From: Octopus sinensis
Taxonomy: Eukaryota
Length of the DNA stretch: 64,000 bases
NCBI RefSeq assembly: GCF_006345805.1
Contig: NC_042997.1
Coordinates: 59,396,001-59,460,000 of the forward strand
Reading direction: 5' to 3'
Below the pieces are notes generated by a model, which was not told the origin of the DNA, did not search any database, and saw nothing but the letters and a program-made list of their open reading frames with translations. Both the position numbers and the translations under genes were made by a program. Positions 8,507 to 57,520 of the stretch are shown piece after piece; the first letter of the stretch is position 1; every line of letters starts with the position of its first letter.

Positions 8507-10296
8507 GTAGGTGGGGTCCAGTTAGAATTTTCTTCGGGTCGAGTAGCCCATCCCGCTCAAAAGGTCCCTGAATAAGGGTGGTCTAAGGAACCTGGCTTTC
8601 GTTGACATGGAGAAAGCCTTTGACAGGGTCCCCCGATCCCTTATCTGGTGGTTAATAAGGAAACTAGGGATAGATGAATGGTTAGTGAGAGCTGTGCGAG
8701 CCATGTACAAGGACACTGTCAGTAAGGTGATGGTTGGCAACGAGTACAGTGAAGAATTCCGGGTAGAGGTGGGGGTCCACCAAGGTTCAGTCCTCAGTCC
8801 TCTCCTATTTATCATAATTCTCCAGACATAAAGGAGCCCCTGGGAGCTCCTGTATGCTGACGACCTTGCTCTAATTGCTGAGTCACTATCAGAACAAGAG
8901 AAGTTTCAAGTGTTGAAACAAGGATTAGAATTGAAGGGCCTTAGAGTCAACCTAGCTAAAACCAATGTCCTAATAAGTAGAAAGGCAAGCAAACCATAAA
9001 TCCCTTCAGGTAGAAGGCCCTGCTCGATCTGTAGAAAAGGCGTAGGTAGAAACTCTATAAGATGTACCCAGTGTAAGCTATGGACACATAAGAGGTGCAG
9101 CAATATGACAGGAAGGCTAACTGGGAAGATAGTTTTTGTATGTGGCAGATGCTCAGGAGCAATAAACACTGAAAATGTGCAGAGAACAACTTCCGCCACA
9201 TTCCAGGGAGAAAAACTAGAAGTAGTTGATAGCTTCCGTTACCCAGGTGACCAAGTCAGTAGCGGGGGAGGGTGCCCTGAAAGTGTAGCTGCTAGAATAA
9301 GAATAGCCTGGGCAAAAGTTCAGAGAGCTCTTACCTCTGCTGGTGACAAAGGACCTCTCGCTCAGAGTAAAAGGTGGACTGTATGACGTATGTGTATGAA
9401 CAGCCATGCTACATGGCAGTGAAACATGGGCTGTGACTACTGAGGACATGCGTAAGCTCGAAAGGAATGAAGCCAGTATGTTCCGATGGATGTGTAATGT
9501 CAGTGTGCATACTTGCCAGAGTGTAAGTACCTTGAGAGAAAAGTTGGACCTAAGAAGCCTCAAATGTGGTGTGCAAGAGAGACGACTGCGCTGGTATGGC
9601 CATGCGGCGAGAATGGATGAGGATAGCTGTGTGAAAAAGCGCCACACCCTAGCGGTTGAGGGAACCTGTGGAAGAGGTAAACCCAAGAAGACCTGTGATG
9701 AGGTGGTGAAGCATGACCTTCGAACATTGGGCCTCACCGAGGCAATGACTAGTGAGCGGGACCTTTGGAAATATGCTATGTTTGAGAAGACTCGGCAAGC
9801 CAAATGAGACCATAACCTCGTGGCCTACGCCAGGGGTGTAACCAGCCCACTTATGCATACCTTTCCTACATTGGACACTCAACTCTGCTTGCGAAGACCT
9901 GTTGAGACAAGGGAAATCGAAATCAAATTTGTTGGCTGGCATCCGTGCTAGTGGAGCACTAAGAGTACCATCCGAGCGTGATTGTTACCTGTGTCAACTT
10001 ATTGGCTAGTGAAAAAACATTCGAGTGAGGTTGTTGCCAGTGCCGCTGGACTGGCTCCTGTGCAGGAGGCTCATAAAAAGCACCATTTGAGCGTGACCGT
10101 TGCCAGTAACGCCTGACTGGCCCTCGTGCTTGTGACACATCAAAGTACCCACTACACTCTCGGAGTGGTTGGCGTTAGCAAGGGCATCCAGCTGTAGAAA
10201 ATCTGCCAGATCATATTGGAGCCTGGTGCAGGCACCTGGTTCGCCAGACCTCAGTCAAATCGTCCAAGGAAAGCGGACGTTAAACGATGATGATGA
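8507..10296 (+). mobile_element. RTE-clade LINE, truncated, with frameshifted RT and (GAT)n tail
   Basis: AFVDMEKAFDRVP, GVHQGSVLSPLLF, LLYADDL, a PHD-like Cys cluster and RRLRWYGH. 3' end GGACGTTAAACGATGATGATG. Confidence 0.93.
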
Positions 10297-13199: not shown

Positions 13200-13560
13200 T
13201 ATAAAAAGCAGGTTCTATCTGTGATCTTGGGGGGTGGGGTCCAAAAACGTAGCAAATGTTTTGCCATACGTGGATATGACCCAAAAAGTTCAGTTCTTGA
13301 ATTCAGACATGTAGCGGGGTATAAAGAACTTTTCCAGATAAGCCATCTTTCCATATCGCAAAAACCACACTTTCCACTGCCATTAGTGTAAGGCTTACAC
13401 TTGGCCAAGATCTTCCAGTGAATCTTAGAGTTGACACCTTTTTCTTTTAAGGACCATATATAACTAGATAATTTGGTTTTTTCCTTTTATCCCAGTGTCT
13501 GAAGCTTTAAATTTTCCCTATTGGAGTAATTATAACCCTTTATTTAACGTTTTTTCCCAT
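13200..13560 (-). pseudogene. Penelope-like element GIY-YIG C-terminal fragment (Hydra-clade-like)
   Basis: LSSYIWSLKEKGVNSKIHWKILAKCKPYTNGSGKCGFCDMERWLI...CLNSRTELF fits the WxIL...Y.....C.LC..E...I...LN.R.E pattern. Confidence 0.8.
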
Positions 13561-15169: not shown

Positions 15170-15393
15170 AGACCAACCTGGCAAAACATGTCTGGGAATT
15201 GAAAGAAAATGAAACCCGTCCGTTCAATGTGACATGGAAAATTTTAGATAAAGCATCAGCTTACAGACATGGTCCTCATAAAAGGCCCATCAAATGTGAT
15301 TTATGCCTTTCGGAAAAACTCTTTATTTTATTCCAGGACAATAGCGCTTTGAATCAAAGACGCGAACTCCAGCAAGCACGCAATAAAATTTAA
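15170..15393 (+). pseudogene. Penelope-like element GIY-YIG C-terminal fragment
   Basis: TNLAKHVWELKENETRPFNVTWKILDKASAY...KCDLCLSEKLFIL...LNQRREL. Confidence 0.8.
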
Positions 15394-21325: not shown

Positions 21326-21364
21326 GTCCAAATCGTTTCGTATTTCTTTATATTCACCAGGATA
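21326..21364 (-). ncRNA. Degenerate hammerhead motif, family HH-D copy 2
   Basis: Minus strand TC-CTGGTGA-ATATAAAGAAATAC-GAAA-CGATTTGGA, at the same position in a ~300-bp diverged repeat. Confidence 0.45.
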
Positions 21365-21671
21365 ACTTCGCTTCTTATCTGCCGAAGTTAAGAAAAACGT
21401 GAACAAACTGTCATTGAGAAATTTACATATAATAATAGTACGACGTTAACACTCTTATACGATTTCCATACGAATATTTATAACCACACTGCGTTAGTAA
21501 TATTATCAAATCCTAACCATCATCATAAGTTGTGCGATTTTCATTCTCGTCTGGCAAAGTGCCTATAGTCTATCCACAGCTTTTATTTTTCAGAATGACT
21601 ATAACCCTAACCATGAACACAACCTTAAAATCTCTGACCAATAATTAATTAATATATATATATGTATATAT

Positions 21672-23278
21672 AAAGAAATGGAGTTAAACGCCGGTGTTAT
21701 TCAAATCCTTATACTTCCGACATATGTTTCGAAGAAAACATTGGTATTATTCCTGAGGGAATAAAATGATGTAAAACAATGTAATCATCTCATCAGGGAT
21801 AAGAGAAACAAAACACATCAATAAGCCATTTTAACAGAATGTGAATACCGCTTAAATAAAGCTTAAAGGCGTGTAAATAGATATATGTAGTGGAAATTAT
21901 AGGAACTAAAGGTATGTTTTTGCCAATTTTTGCAACAATAAACACGCTCTTTAAACGTGTTTAGAAGAGAATTCTCCGAGAACAGAATGAGATACTGTTC
22001 TTCGTTATAGAGCGGATATACCTTTATCATATAAAAAGGATCTAGATAGAATATTCCATTCTAAATCAAATTGTTTATGTTCCTTAAGAGACCAAATTAA
22101 TTTACTAAGCCCAGTATTGTCGCGTTTATTGATATGTCTAAATATAGAGTAATGGTTAGATATTTTTGGACAACTGTGTAAAAAAAAAAGACATCAGAAC
22201 CGGAAGTAATTTTACTTTGATAAACAGAGTTTCTAGTCTTAGAATTACTGATAAGGAAACGAATGCGATTGGAATTTGTATCAGAAATACTAATATTGTT
22301 GCTATTATTGTTCAAAAAATGGGTAGTGTTAATATGAATGTTATTTTCATTAAGTGAATTTGTATTTAACAGCGGTGCATCAGCATGGCCGCAGCTCTGA
22401 GCTGAAACAAGAAAAACGAACTTATTTTTATGCGAAGAGATGATTTTCGAAAGGTTTTTGGTGTGAATTGATAATGGAATGGTATCTTGAATTTTGTGGG
22501 AAATTCTTATCTATAGCTTCACGAAAGTGGTAAGGGAGGTTGGATTTGATCTGCTTACCATATGGAATTATCAACCAAACAGTTTTACTAGGACAGACTT
22601 TGTTATTAAGGTAATTATCTTTAAAAATCCTGTATTTATTTTTATAACGTAACAAAGGTCTTAAAGAACGGTTATCTCCCTTTCGCTGCAAAATTACTTT
22701 TTTAGATTTAATGTTGTTATTCGAACTAAAATTTATATTGCTATTACCGTTGTGGCGTGTTTTCATGTTCTGATTAATAGAGGTAGAATTAATGTCAATA
22801 GGGTTAGTATAGGTAATTTTTTCTGTATAACCTGCTTTAAGTAAGGCAGAGTTATAAAATTCGGCTTTATCTTTGAAGATATCAACATTGGCAGGTAATC
22901 TAGAAAGTTTAAGTGAAATATTTCTAACTAAATTCCTTGTAATAGCCTTTGGGTGATTACTGAAAGAGCTAATATATTTTAAATTAGTTGAGGGTTTATG
23001 GTATGGGAAATATGAATCATTATGTAAGTTAAGGGTAATATCCAAAAAGTTGGCTTTAGTTATATCATCGTCGAAAACAATGCTTAAGCCCATGTTTCGG
23101 AAAAATTCAACCAACCTATTTTAACCCTTTGTAATTTTTGGTTAGAAATATTTTGAAGGCAGAGTAGACAATCGTCACGATATAGACCTTCATTGATGTT
23201 TGGGAATTGATCAACCATCTCATAAAGGATATATATACCGACCAACTCAGCCAATGGTGCTGAGTCAGAACTTACCAT
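21672..23278 (-). mobile_element. Penelope-like retroelement (Hydra-clade-like RT), 5'-truncated and disrupted, with pseudo-LTR
   Basis: GLYRDD, NFLDITLNL...FPYHKP...YISSFSNHP and YNSALLKAGY. A C-terminal remnant EEQYLILFSENSLLN lies near 21950-22010, with the hammerhead downstream. Confidence 0.88.
21715..21800 (-). ncRNA. Type I hammerhead ribozyme with extended stem II (Penelope pseudo-LTR)
   Basis: Minus strand TCC-CTGATGA-[stem II with ACATTG/CAATGT and TTATTCC-CTCA-GGAATAA]-GAAA-CATATG-TC-GGA. Intact core, GUC site, palindromic stem III ACATATGT. Confidence 0.85.
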
Positions 23279-23927
23279 CGTGACGAACTGTGGGCCGGAA
23301 GACTTTCTGATTTTTAGTAGTGCAGTCCATCCGACGATGATCCATGTCTCATGCGGCTCGCTTCTCGAAAAGATTACCCGTGCCTACAATCCAACACCAC
23401 TGTCTAGGCTCCATACCATATATTCCAAATCTGGCTTTGAAAGTTATCATAGAATCAACAATTCACATTTCTTATTCTTCACCCTGATTTTATGATAACG
23501 ACTGTCAGTTACTGGAGTTCTAAATCTTACGTTGTTATTTCTCTTAATTCATTTGATGTTTCTGCCGCTCATTGGACTCCTTAAGTTACCCGTTGTTATT
23601 CAACTATCTCTTATCCTTCCTTGAGGGCATCATATTTTGCTTATCGCTCTCCTTTCTTTTCATCTAAATCATCACCCTTGAAGACTGTAATGCTACTTAC
23701 TCTTCTTCAAAAGGAGGCTGAAACATTCTGTAATATCGTTTCCAGAACACAAGACGGGACGGTCATGGCCTGATTGCTGTTGGTTATTGGTATACTTAGT
23801 GAAAGCTAATAAAGGTAAGAGCTCTAAAACTATTCTCGCATAGACGCTAATGGCGTAGAGGCAGATCGTTTGCAATTCTGAATTAATTACAGTTATAACA
23901 CCATTTAGTATTCGCAGCCGCCCACAT

Positions 23928-32912: not shown

Positions 32913-33065
32913 GGAAGGATGTGATTTGGGGATCTGATGATACACCATAAAGCTAAACCCTTTATGGATGGGAAACCTAAGGTAATCCCATAAACCAGTC
33001 TTCCCCAGTTTTAATATATACTACTCTACATCTTAGAATGAGCTTCTTCTTTTCAAGCTCTTAAT

Positions 33066-36889: not shown

Positions 36890-36935
36890 GACACCTGATG
36901 AAGGCTGGAGGGTATATCAGCTGAAATGTTGTGTT
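36890..36935 (+). ncRNA. Minimal hammerhead motif, family HH-A
   Basis: GACAC-CTGATGA-A-GGCTG...CAGCT-GAAA-TGTT-GTGTT. Core intact, with two CpG-type changes in the stems. Confidence 0.75.
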
Positions 36936-47247: not shown

Positions 47248-49593
47248 GGAGGTTGGGCGACAGGTATACATAGCTAAGGGCGAAGCAGAAAAAAGTTTGC
47301 CAATGTCCAGCGATGTGAGGACCAAAGAACTGAAGTATTCTGGATTGCAAGACAGTGTGTGAGAGAAAATTGTGATGTCACAGGAGAGAAATGTGTCTGC
47401 ATGGATGATGGTGCACTGCTTTTAATGATTCGGAAAAGAAAGAGGCTTGGAGAAGCCATTATGAAAGACTGCTGAACGTGGAGAATGAATGGAAGGAGGA
47501 GAGCCTGTTAAATGTTGATCCAGTAGAGAGGCCAGCTATCCAAATAGACAGCACCCAGGTAGATAAAGCAATTAAGGGTATGAAGTCAGAAAAAGCTCCC
47601 GGGCCATCAGGAATCACCGCTGGGATGCTTAAAACATCCGGTGGTGTGGGCTATAGCCTAGTCACCCGTATTGTAAACCAGGTAGTTGATGATAGAGTCA
47701 TACCCAATGACTGGCACAGCAGCACCATAGTCAACTGCTACAAAGGTAAAGGTGGTGCTTTAGATAGAAATAACTACAGGGGTATCAAACTGCTGGATCA
47801 GGTGATGAAGGGAGAGAGTCTGCTTAGATGAGATGCAGTTCAGTTTTGTGAACCACTGATGCTATATTCCTGGTACAGCAACTGCAGGAGAAATACCTAG
47901 CCAAAGATAAACCCCTATATTTGGCTTTTGTGGACATGGAGAAAGCCTTTAACAGGGTCCCTCGATCCCTTATGTGGTGGGTGATGTGGAAACTGGGGAT
48001 TGATGAATGGTTAATAAGGGCTGTACAGGCCCTATACAGAGATGCTGTTAGTAGGGTTAGGATTGGAAATGAGTATAGTGAAGAATTCCAGGTAGAAGTA
48101 TGGGTCCAAGGATCAGCCCTCAGCCCCTTCTTATTCATTATTGTCCACCAGGCAATAACAGAGGAATTCAAGACAGGTTGCCCCTGGGAGCTCCTCTATG
48201 CTGATGACCTGGCCCTCATAGCAGAATCACTACCAGAACTAGAGAAGAAACTTCAAGTGTGGAAGCAAGGTTTAGAATCGAAGAGCCTTAGAGTCAATGT
48301 TGCAAAGACCAAAGTTCTAGTAAGTAGGAAGGCGAACACATCACACACCCCTTCAGGTAGGTGGCCCTGCTCGATCTGTAGAGAAGGTGTAGGTAGAAAC
48401 TCCATAAGATGTACCCAGTGTAAACTATGGACACATAAGAGGTGCAGCAACATCAAAGGAAGATTAACAGGGAAGATAGTTTTCATGTGCAGCAGATGCT
48501 CAGAAAACAGACTCCATCACATGCCAGGAGGAGAAACTAGAAGTAGTTGATAGCTTCCGCTACCTAGGTGACCAAGTCTGTAGTGAGGGTGGATGCTCAG
48601 AGAGTGTTAGCACTAGAATAAGAATAGCCTGGGCAAAGTTCAGAAAGCTTCTACCCCTACTGGTGACAAAGGGCCTATTGCTCAGAGTGAAAGGCAGATT
48701 GTATGATGCATGTGTGCGAAATGCCATGCTTCATGGCAGTGAAAGATGTGCCGTGACTGCTGAATACATGCGTAGGCTCAAAAGAAATGAAGCCAGCATG
48801 ATCTGAAAGATGTGTAATGTCAGTATGCACACATGACAGAGTGTAAGCACCCTGAGATAAATGTTAGACATGAGAAGCATAGGATGTGGAGTGCAAGAGA
48901 GATGTTTGCGTTGGTATGGTCATGTACGGCAGATGGACGAGGAGAGCTGTGTGAAGAAGTGCCACTCCCAAACAGTGGAAGGAATCTGGGGTAGAGGGAG
49001 ACCCAGGAAGACATGGGATGAGGTGGTGAAGTATGACCTTCAAACATTGGGCCTCACAGAGGCAATGACAAAAGACTGAGACCTCTGGATTTATGCTGTG
49101 ACTGAGAAGACTCAGCAAATAAAGTGAGTCCACATCTGTAACCTACACCAGTGTCACATAACCAGCCCACTCAAAAGTACCTTGGATTATAGGGAGACAT
49201 GCTGTACTTGAGGAAGCCTATTGACTCAAGTACATCTACATCAATATCAAAATCAAATCAAATGGAAATTGTAGTATGACCCCCGTGCTGGTAGCATGTA
49301 AAAAGCACCATCTGAATGTGGCTGAAGGCAGTGCCACTTTGACTGGCCGTTGGTATGTAAAAAGCACCATCCAATCATGGTCAATGCTAGCTCCTTTGGC
49401 CCATGTTGGTAGCACATAAAAAGCACCCACTACACTCTTGGAGTGGTTGGTGTTAAGAAGGGCATTCAGCTGTAGAAACACTGCCAGATCAGACAGGGGC
49501 CTGGTGCAGCCTCCTGGCTTCCCAGACCCTGTTGAGCCGTCCAACCCATGCTAGCATAGAAAATGGACGTTAAACGAAGACGATGATGATGAT
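47248..49593 (+). mobile_element. RTE-clade LINE, 5'-truncated, disrupted RT
   Basis: KAPGPSGI, YRGIKLL, AFVDMEKAF, LLYADDL and LRWYGHV. (GAT)n tail. Same family as 8507-10296. Confidence 0.95.
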
Positions 49594-56602: not shown

Positions 56603-57126
56603 TCTTCTATATATATATATAAAACTGTAGTTGTGTGAGTGTCTGTCTCCTACGATTTAGATTCCTAACTCCTCCCACATTTTGCGGTGCAGTTTAACCA
56701 AATTCGGGTATCTTATAGTCGTGATTAATATCGAGCCCGTCTGGCTATTAGCGCGCGTCTACGATGAGTCTACGATTTTAAAAATAATTTAACATCATTT
56801 TTTATTCCATTTTAATGCATAATTTTTCGTGTGTTGATGGCGGCGGAGTTGGCATCCACGCTCAAACACCTGCACCTGTGTTTGCTTCTCCTCCTTCTTC
56901 CCTCCCTCGTGAAGCTGTGGGGAAGGGATTTTAAGGAAATCAACGTCGTAATGCGTTGTCAAGGAGACCAGCGTTCTTTTAGAACAACGACTTCATGGCT
57001 TGAAGACACCAAAACAGAAATGGCTAAGAAAGCCCGAATTGGCATCTATAAGGGAAGTAACTCTCTAAAAATGCTTATATAGTTATTTCCCTTACAAACC
57101 CGAGCAACGCCAGACAATACTGCTAG
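56603..57126 (+). mobile_element. Non-autonomous Helitron H1
   Basis: Near-identical reverse complement of 1497-2014. Ends GCTAG. Confidence 0.88.
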
Positions 57127-57520
57127 TTATATATAAAAGTGAAGTTGTGTGTCTGTCTCCTACGATTTAGATTCCTAACTACTCCCACATTTTGTGGTGC
57201 AGTGTAACCAAAACCGGGTATCTTATAGTCGTGATTCATATCGAGCCCTTCTGGGTATTAGCGTGCGTCTACGATGAGTCTACGATTTAAAAAAAATTTA
57301 CCATCATATTTTTCCATTTTAATGCATTTTTTTCGCTATTATGTAAGGGAAGTAACTCTCTAAAAATATCTACGATGTATCAACGATTTAAAAAAAATTT
57401 ACCTTAATTTTTTTTCCATTTTTAATGCATTTTTTTGCTATTTTTTGGCTATAACTCTCTAAAAATGCTTATATAGTTATTTCCCTTACAAACCCGAGCA
57501 ACGCCGGGCGATACTGCTAG
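57127..57520 (+). mobile_element. Non-autonomous Helitron H1-related shorter variant, head-to-tail with the previous copy
   Basis: Same 5' and 3' ends, lacks the central GC-rich part, ends CCGGGCGATACTGCTAG|T. Confidence 0.85.

Follow-up and report, generated by a model that had tools for sequence, protein, structure and literature searches.

Hammerheads at the ends of Hydra-clade Penelope-like elements (PLEs), including those of octopus, and their palindromic stem III are already published. In the available text of Craig et al. 2021 (PMC8557442), these hammerheads are of type I, lie on the sense strand near the 3' end, and have CUGANGA and GAAA cores and a palindromic stem III of 3-4 bp, and the locus described here is like them in each of these features. 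Hydra PLEs are marked in that source by DKT, a CxCx5C linker, CxxC, CxH, canonical hammerheads and (TA)n targets, (TA)n being their typical insertion target; the target and the RT motifs GLYRDD and NFLD-TL are common to the present element. The stem II domain measured 12-26 nt in 26 Hydra rows by our own count from File S2 of the same paper. The Hydra-1_Obim hammerhead of O. bimaculoides belongs to this clade but has a different sequence, a 23-nt domain and a GUU triplet; therefore, the present element represents another family. Two spike-moss hammerheads, PLE-X1_sMoe and PLE-X1_sTam, were flagged there as deviating from the canonical structure. They likewise have a long stem II domain (~54 and ~48 nt, respectively, by our count); however, they belong to plant EN-minus elements of another clade, their stem III is non-standard, and no three-helix arm is described for them in the available text.

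Metazoan PLE hammerheads (Cervera and De la Pena 2014, PMC4209133) resemble the present one in their short stem I, G10.1-C11.1 and palindromic stem III. As far as the available part of that paper goes, their helix II comprises 6-8 bp with a simple loop, whereas three helices and two internal loops are found here, and those with little or no helix III cleave weakly in vitro, as dimers (see also the review PMC6765202). Another PLE hammerhead, that of Poseidon PAc from Anolis, is the source of the protein-assisted cleavage model: according to the available part of PMC11167929, it cleaved only with the element's own protein and was dispensable for insertion in vitro, and a protein-binding region was proposed within a stretch that includes it. 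It differs in belonging to another clade, overlapping the ORF start and having no long arm. Animal non-LTR retrozymes share the type I hammerhead, the high copy number and, in some cases, dimer cleavage (PMC7229834 and bioRxiv 10.64898/2026.07.22.740005, available portions). However, they are non-coding tandem units of 150-450 bp, whereas the motif studied here is single and lies behind an RT-endonuclease frame.

The hammerhead motif and its host element

A type I hammerhead was found on the minus strand at 21799-21716 of the window, i.e., the whole 64,000-nt stretch of DNA analysed, with cleavage predicted 3' of C21719. Its parts are as follows.

21799-21797, minus strand: 5' strand of stem I, UCC (sequence reading)
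21796-21790, minus strand: catalytic core CUGAUGA; N7 is 21792, which differs between copies
21789-21731, minus strand: stem II domain, 59 nt
21730-21727, minus strand: GAAA core
21727-21720, minus strand: palindromic stem III, ACAUAUGU; 8-bp self-duplex, -7.0 kcal/mol
21719, minus strand: C17 of the GUC triplet; predicted cut site from the established hammerhead numbering
21718-21716, minus strand: 3' strand of stem I, GGA

The original prediction had read CUGAUGA and GAAA cores, GUC, stem I UCC/GGA and a palindromic stem III from the letters, and each was present at its place on the minus strand. The CUGANGA and GAAA cores are accompanied by A15.1-U16.1 and an NUH triplet. Stem I has 3 bp and could be extended distally, past a 4-nt bulge, by pairing of 21804-21800 with 21711-21707; for this bulge and the 2x2 U loop that lies five pairs into stem II, no conserved loop 1-loop 2 contact letters were shown. 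A strict type I descriptor matched once in the 64-kb window, at this motif, and in none of 100 dinucleotide shuffles.

When three helices were placed round the core with helix I open, every pair could form, but the hammerhead was not the minimum-energy fold of the whole motif, so the proposed check by RNA folding did not return it. The whole-motif folding energy was no better than that of shuffles (z -0.73; z -0.23 in a second run). The proposed Rfam check was also negative: no hammerhead family was matched at the gathering score, and none at E up to 10. This miss is probably due to the stem II insertion. The absent Rfam match and the unremarkable whole-motif energy would be expected if short motifs had come together by chance in AT-rich DNA, but such an origin is hardly credible and was rejected, considering the 0 of 100 shuffles with a strict match, the position expected for a PLE hammerhead and the same layout in relatives, and a variation among copies that is centred on N7.

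Other hammerhead-like arrangements were observed in the window. A second CUGAUGA core lies at 21057-21051 (minus strand, region 21060-20930), 660 nt downstream of the hammerhead. In a local reading, UCC/GGA and the palindrome ACUAGU are present and stem II is broken. In a long-range reading, GUA/UAC closes on a GAAAC ~100 nt further along; the inner stem is then a perfect one of 7 bp and ACGU/ACGU could form stem III, but there is no canonical stem I (fold z -1.0). The region could be a permuted or split-core hammerhead, judging from its letters. Another CGAAAC is found near 21330. At 32929-32989 (plus strand), a type I hammerhead-like motif has a 5-bp stem I, a 3-bp stem III and a GUA triplet; its stem II domain of 31 nt contains an 8-bp helix but is loose at the base. 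At 36891-36934 (plus strand), there is a minimal PLE-type hammerhead with a 4-bp stem I, a 21-nt stem II domain and an apparently altered C15.2.

The surroundings of the motif on the same strand were assigned as follows.

21896..23284, minus strand: broken RT-thumb-endonuclease frame of a putative Hydra-type PLE (hmmsearch with a profile of 20 relatives; tblastn; phmmer)
21800..21895, minus strand: 3' UTR 5' of the hammerhead, lacking letters carried by related copies near 21851-21855 and 21897
21652..21715, minus strand: element tail of ~45 nt, then a (TA)n tract (21672-21652)

The profile match at 23284-21896 covered positions 312-704 of 730 in four pieces and two frames and ran through RT (from profile position 312), thumb, a low-complexity insertion of ~57 residues and a degenerate endonuclease. 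RT followed by a C-terminal GIY-YIG-type endonuclease is the order of Hydra PLEs, here interrupted by frameshifts, and the host copy is 5'-truncated and frameshifted. The frame at 23120-22428 had 2,113 relatives at E up to 0.001 (phmmer), and the best named ones were from Octopus sinensis and O. bimaculoides (the two named among eight looked up), so that octopus is the likely source of the window. The hammerhead starts ~97 nt behind the profile match, and (TA)n was seen at the 3' junction only. The profile, the relatives and the (TA)n end agree in placing the hammerhead at the 3' end of a Hydra-type element, as had been proposed. A near-palindromic 12-mer is located at 21698-21687 (minus strand), in the tail between the hammerhead and (TA)n, with no row among the 40 variants listed of 71.

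The N-terminal RWK/DKT region is missing from the truncated copy. Among 14 relatives of at least 550 aa, DK[TS] was found in 12 and exact RWK in one, RW being invariant in their alignment. The CxCx5C linker, CxxC and CxH (round conserved E and N) are degenerate in this copy and were present in 6, 7 and 5, respectively, of these 14 relatives, among which several are truncated. Since the motifs that define Hydra elements are missing or degenerate here, the clade assignment rests on the relatives and should be taken as provisional, the motifs of Hydra-1_Obim having been compared by eye. Other searches gave no matches: no Pfam family for six pieces of the element (16 proteins scanned), none in a word-indexed search among longer proteins, no protein relative in viral contigs, and none in exact pattern scans of viral and metagenome contigs.

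No second copy of either motif half was found in the window at up to 4 mismatches or by self-blastn, and neither a pseudo-LTR nor a partial tandem of the PLE was found there. Because single truncated PLE copies are common, the lack of a tandem does not exclude PLE membership. It does bear on another origin, in which the hammerhead would belong to a short non-autonomous, retrozyme-like unit lying by chance behind a PLE fragment. In its favour, invertebrates commonly carry retrozymes with type I hammerheads, according to the available portion of PMC7229834, and a derivation of retrozymes from PLE ends is stated in that of bioRxiv 10.64898/2026.07.22.740005. Moreover, the summed depth of related contigs was much greater over 21680-21799 than over 21845-21889. 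However, the depth dip falls where this copy lacks letters, the depth rises again at 21905-21934, in the end of the endonuclease, and contigs span 21681 to 21851. Considering also that position, strand and spacing are those of a PLE 3' UTR and that non-coding tandem units were not found, this origin is very unlikely.

Several further repeats were noted in the window. Hydra-type endonuclease-end fragments of other families lie at 13283-13477 (minus strand) and 15172-15369 (plus strand), with no hammerhead seen behind either. A LINE-type RT fragment followed by a PHD finger is located at 47852-48550 (plus strand). The 300 nt at 48635-48934 are 80% like 9315-9614, and 1486-1898 and 56725-57137 form a 413-nt inverted pair, 97% alike, i.e., two young copies of one repeat.

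Length and fold of the stem II domain

The length of the stem II domain was compared with that in 78 related metagenome loci, from which 10 were dropped because the match ended before the C-terminus and 7 because fewer than 120 nt of 3' DNA were available. A hammerhead with a palindromic stem III was found in 34 of the remaining 61 loci, 77-524 nt behind the ORF; five of these 34 rows are duplicates or near-duplicates. In all 34, the stem II domain was 10-25 nt, with up to 110 nt permitted in the search. A relaxed rescan of the other 27 loci gave 7 in which GAAA follows a CUGA core after 13-25 nt; four other matches, which start with TTGA and have spacers of 50-95 nt, were attributed to chance. 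The stem II had been called unusually long from the sequence, and the comparison bears this out. At 59 nt, more than double the usual length, it is an outlier for the Hydra clade, yet precedented among PLEs. In the literature searched on long or extended stem II hammerheads and on octopus hammerheads, a three-helix 59-nt arm was not found described; the PLE-dimer data of Lunse et al. 2017 and the supplements of PMC4209133 may hold long-arm cases. The main text of a 2026 O. vulgaris repeat paper mentions neither hammerhead nor ribozyme.

The 59-nt domain alone folded at -10.9 kcal/mol (z -2.9, 3 of 1000 shuffles as low; z -2.6, 4 of 200) into the following parts.

21789-21785 with 21735-21731, minus strand: helix IIa, GAUGA/UCUUC, whose third pair is U-U in this copy
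Between IIa and IIb, minus strand: 2x2 U loop
21782-21777 with 21743-21738, minus strand: helix IIb, ACAUUG/CAAUGU
Between IIb and IIc, minus strand: 12x3 internal loop
21764-21758 with 21753-21747, minus strand: helix IIc, UUAUUCC/GGAAUAA, with the 4-nt apical loop CUCA

IIc was the most stable part, with a predicted pairing of 0.79-0.99 in every context. Thus, the two helices named in the original prediction, ACAUUG/CAAUGU and UUAUUCC/GGAAUAA with loop CUCA, do form in the predicted fold, but their stacking was not shown, a 12x3 internal loop lying between them, and the proximal helix GAUGA/UCUUC with its one U-U had been left out.

The sequence UUACAU occurs twice in the arm, and within 21743-21721 (minus strand) the GAAACAUAUG strand recurs, inverted and imperfectly, as the 3' strand of IIb. 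The arm may have originated by a local fold-back duplication. SECIS elements have AUGA with a partner GA and an AA loop. A SECIS reading of the arm, in which AUGA is present, was rejected by eye, as neither the partner GA nor the AA loop was found.

Family copies and the pattern of variation

Contigs matching 21560-21980 were counted when at least 80% alike (most were 90-95% alike). There were 1,914, 1,495, 1,420 and 2,068 of them in four DNA runs with four organism codes, and so many distinct contigs indicate a large family, depth itself being no copy number. The summed depth over the arm was of the same order as over the core in all four runs, and the 59-nt extension is a family trait. As regards a short-arm subfamily, no joint removing the extension alone was found among the 15 listed of 44. 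One contig in each of three runs had 21726-21800, core included, replaced by 18-21 other letters, i.e., a rearranged core-less copy.

The variant tables are unphased and depth-weighted, and the 40 listed rows of 71 are considered here. In the core, N7 differed in 42-74%, C3 in 3-9% and C17, in a CpG, in 6-17%, and no other core letter had a variant row among these 40. In the arm, rows fell on 2 of 36 helix positions versus 6 of 23 loop positions (Fisher one-sided p 0.033), a marginal difference obtained with the structure of one family member. After the change 21782 A>G, the position still pairs, as G-U; 21787 U>A (43-87%) turns the U-U of this copy into a closed pair, and 21736 U>G (24-59%) adds a wobble. 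The two varying letters of the apical loop differed in 58-82%, and both loops, apical and internal, show different letters and apparently also different lengths among copies. In stem I, 21798 C>U (10-17%) with 21717 G>A (2-44%), and beyond it 21800 A>U (79-82%) with 21711 U>A (52-76%), are possibly compensatory, though unphased; 21717 G>A or 21718 G>A alone breaks a stem I pair. The covariation check proposed for stem II came out in part: pairing was kept among the copies as far as the unphased tables go, but no two-sided compensatory change was seen inside the arm among the 40 rows.

To judge from the letters of the copies, this pattern is consistent with selection having acted in master elements both on catalysis and on keeping the arm closed, and the conservation of the arm may partly be descent from few masters. 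The original prediction had suggested that the extension could be a regulatory or protein-binding domain. The apical loop is among the most variable parts and the internal loop is also variable; loops that are not conserved argue against a loop site read by sequence. A version that depends less on letters would make the arm the binding site of the element's RT-endonuclease protein, recognized by shape and serving as a cis-preference or priming signal. The stability of IIc in every context and the absence of any row in it among the 40 listed of 71 agree with such a site, as does the binding region proposed for the Anolis PLE, which includes the hammerhead (PMC11167929, available part). However, the loops change apparently even in length, and the arm is absent from 34 of 34 related hammerheads, so we consider such a role quite unlikely.

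It is probable, though by no means certain, that the motif is a type I hammerhead belonging to the 3' UTR of a truncated, frameshifted Hydra-type PLE and that the stem II extension of this family is a self-folding, tolerated addition and not a separate domain. Under this reading, master elements would once have been active, and tandem copies would have brought two hammerheads together in a single transcript. Both would then pair with each other through the palindromic stem III, possibly with the help of the element's protein, and the RNA would be cut after GUC. Selection would keep the core and would keep the extension paired and out of the core, while the loops of the extension would be free to drift.

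This copy, its predicted competing hairpin and the family

The motif had also been called the best candidate for an active ribozyme in the window. It is indeed the sole match to the strict descriptor there, but the claim of activity was not supported for this copy. The host is truncated and frameshifted. A is found at 21800, where ~80% of the copies have U, which lengthens the proximal stem I, so that stem I is shorter here. At 21787, where A prevails in most runs, it has U, giving the U-U mismatch. When the fold was constrained to the monomeric hammerhead, the cost was 7.3 kcal/mol of ensemble energy, compared with a median of 4.7 in 29 relatives; the cost was at least as high in 5 of the 29 and lower in the other 24. 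Because the window holds no second copy, a dimer partner would come from another transcript, and free cofolding of two copies gave no double hammerhead. In a search of sequencing runs, none of those listed was on record as RNA, and six runs guessed to be RNA contained 6-12% of the words. Probably, this copy is a relic whose monomer, should it be transcribed at all, would cleave at a low rate.

A hairpin that competes with the hammerhead was predicted.

21741-21736 with 21729-21724, minus strand: predicted competing hairpin of six Watson-Crick pairs, hiding the GAAAC strand and excluding IIb

Its mean pair probability at 37 C was 0.52-0.89 in three short contexts and 0.13-0.17 in two contexts with 100-150 nt more 5' sequence; at 20 C, it was 0.03. 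The self-duplex of the palindrome uses the same ACAU letters as this hairpin. This sharing of letters is the basis for supposing a conformational gate, in which the CAAUGUUUU strand of the arm would pair with GAAACAU in the monomer and turn the ribozyme off, and a palindrome dimer or the element's protein would free the strand. The predicted hairpin leaves such a switch-like role possible. The six pairs are consecutive and exclusive with IIb, the palindrome duplex (-7.0 kcal/mol) draws on the letters that the hairpin needs, no variant row falls at 21741-21737 or 21729-21724 among the 40 listed of 71, and a PLE hammerhead that cleaves only with its own protein is published (PMC11167929, available part). 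However, the balance flips with context, towards the hammerhead arm with longer 5' sequence and at 20 C; 21736 U>G reduces the six pairs to five; the on-fold is strengthened by the A that the majority has at 21787; the same letters are conserved anyway as core and IIb; and relatives work without any extension. On balance, the gate is an unlikely explanation on the folding models used. The tolerated, self-folding extension remains the preferred reading, and the six-pair match of the IIb strand to the GAAAC strand is unexplained by neutral tolerance.

The role of PLE hammerheads is called still open in the available parts of both PMC8557442 and PMC11167929. If the arm is merely tolerated, it is a modest structural variant. 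It is doubtful, though suggested by the modelled hairpin, that the octopus holds a high-copy Penelope family with a self-gating hammerhead, in which cleavage would be tied to tandem transcripts and of which standard models would miss the whole class. With its large fixed insertion and its very high number of copies, the family offers a natural experiment on the tolerance of stem II and on the gating of cleavage. Since such motifs are missed by Rfam, octopus-like genomes probably contain more hammerheads than have been counted.
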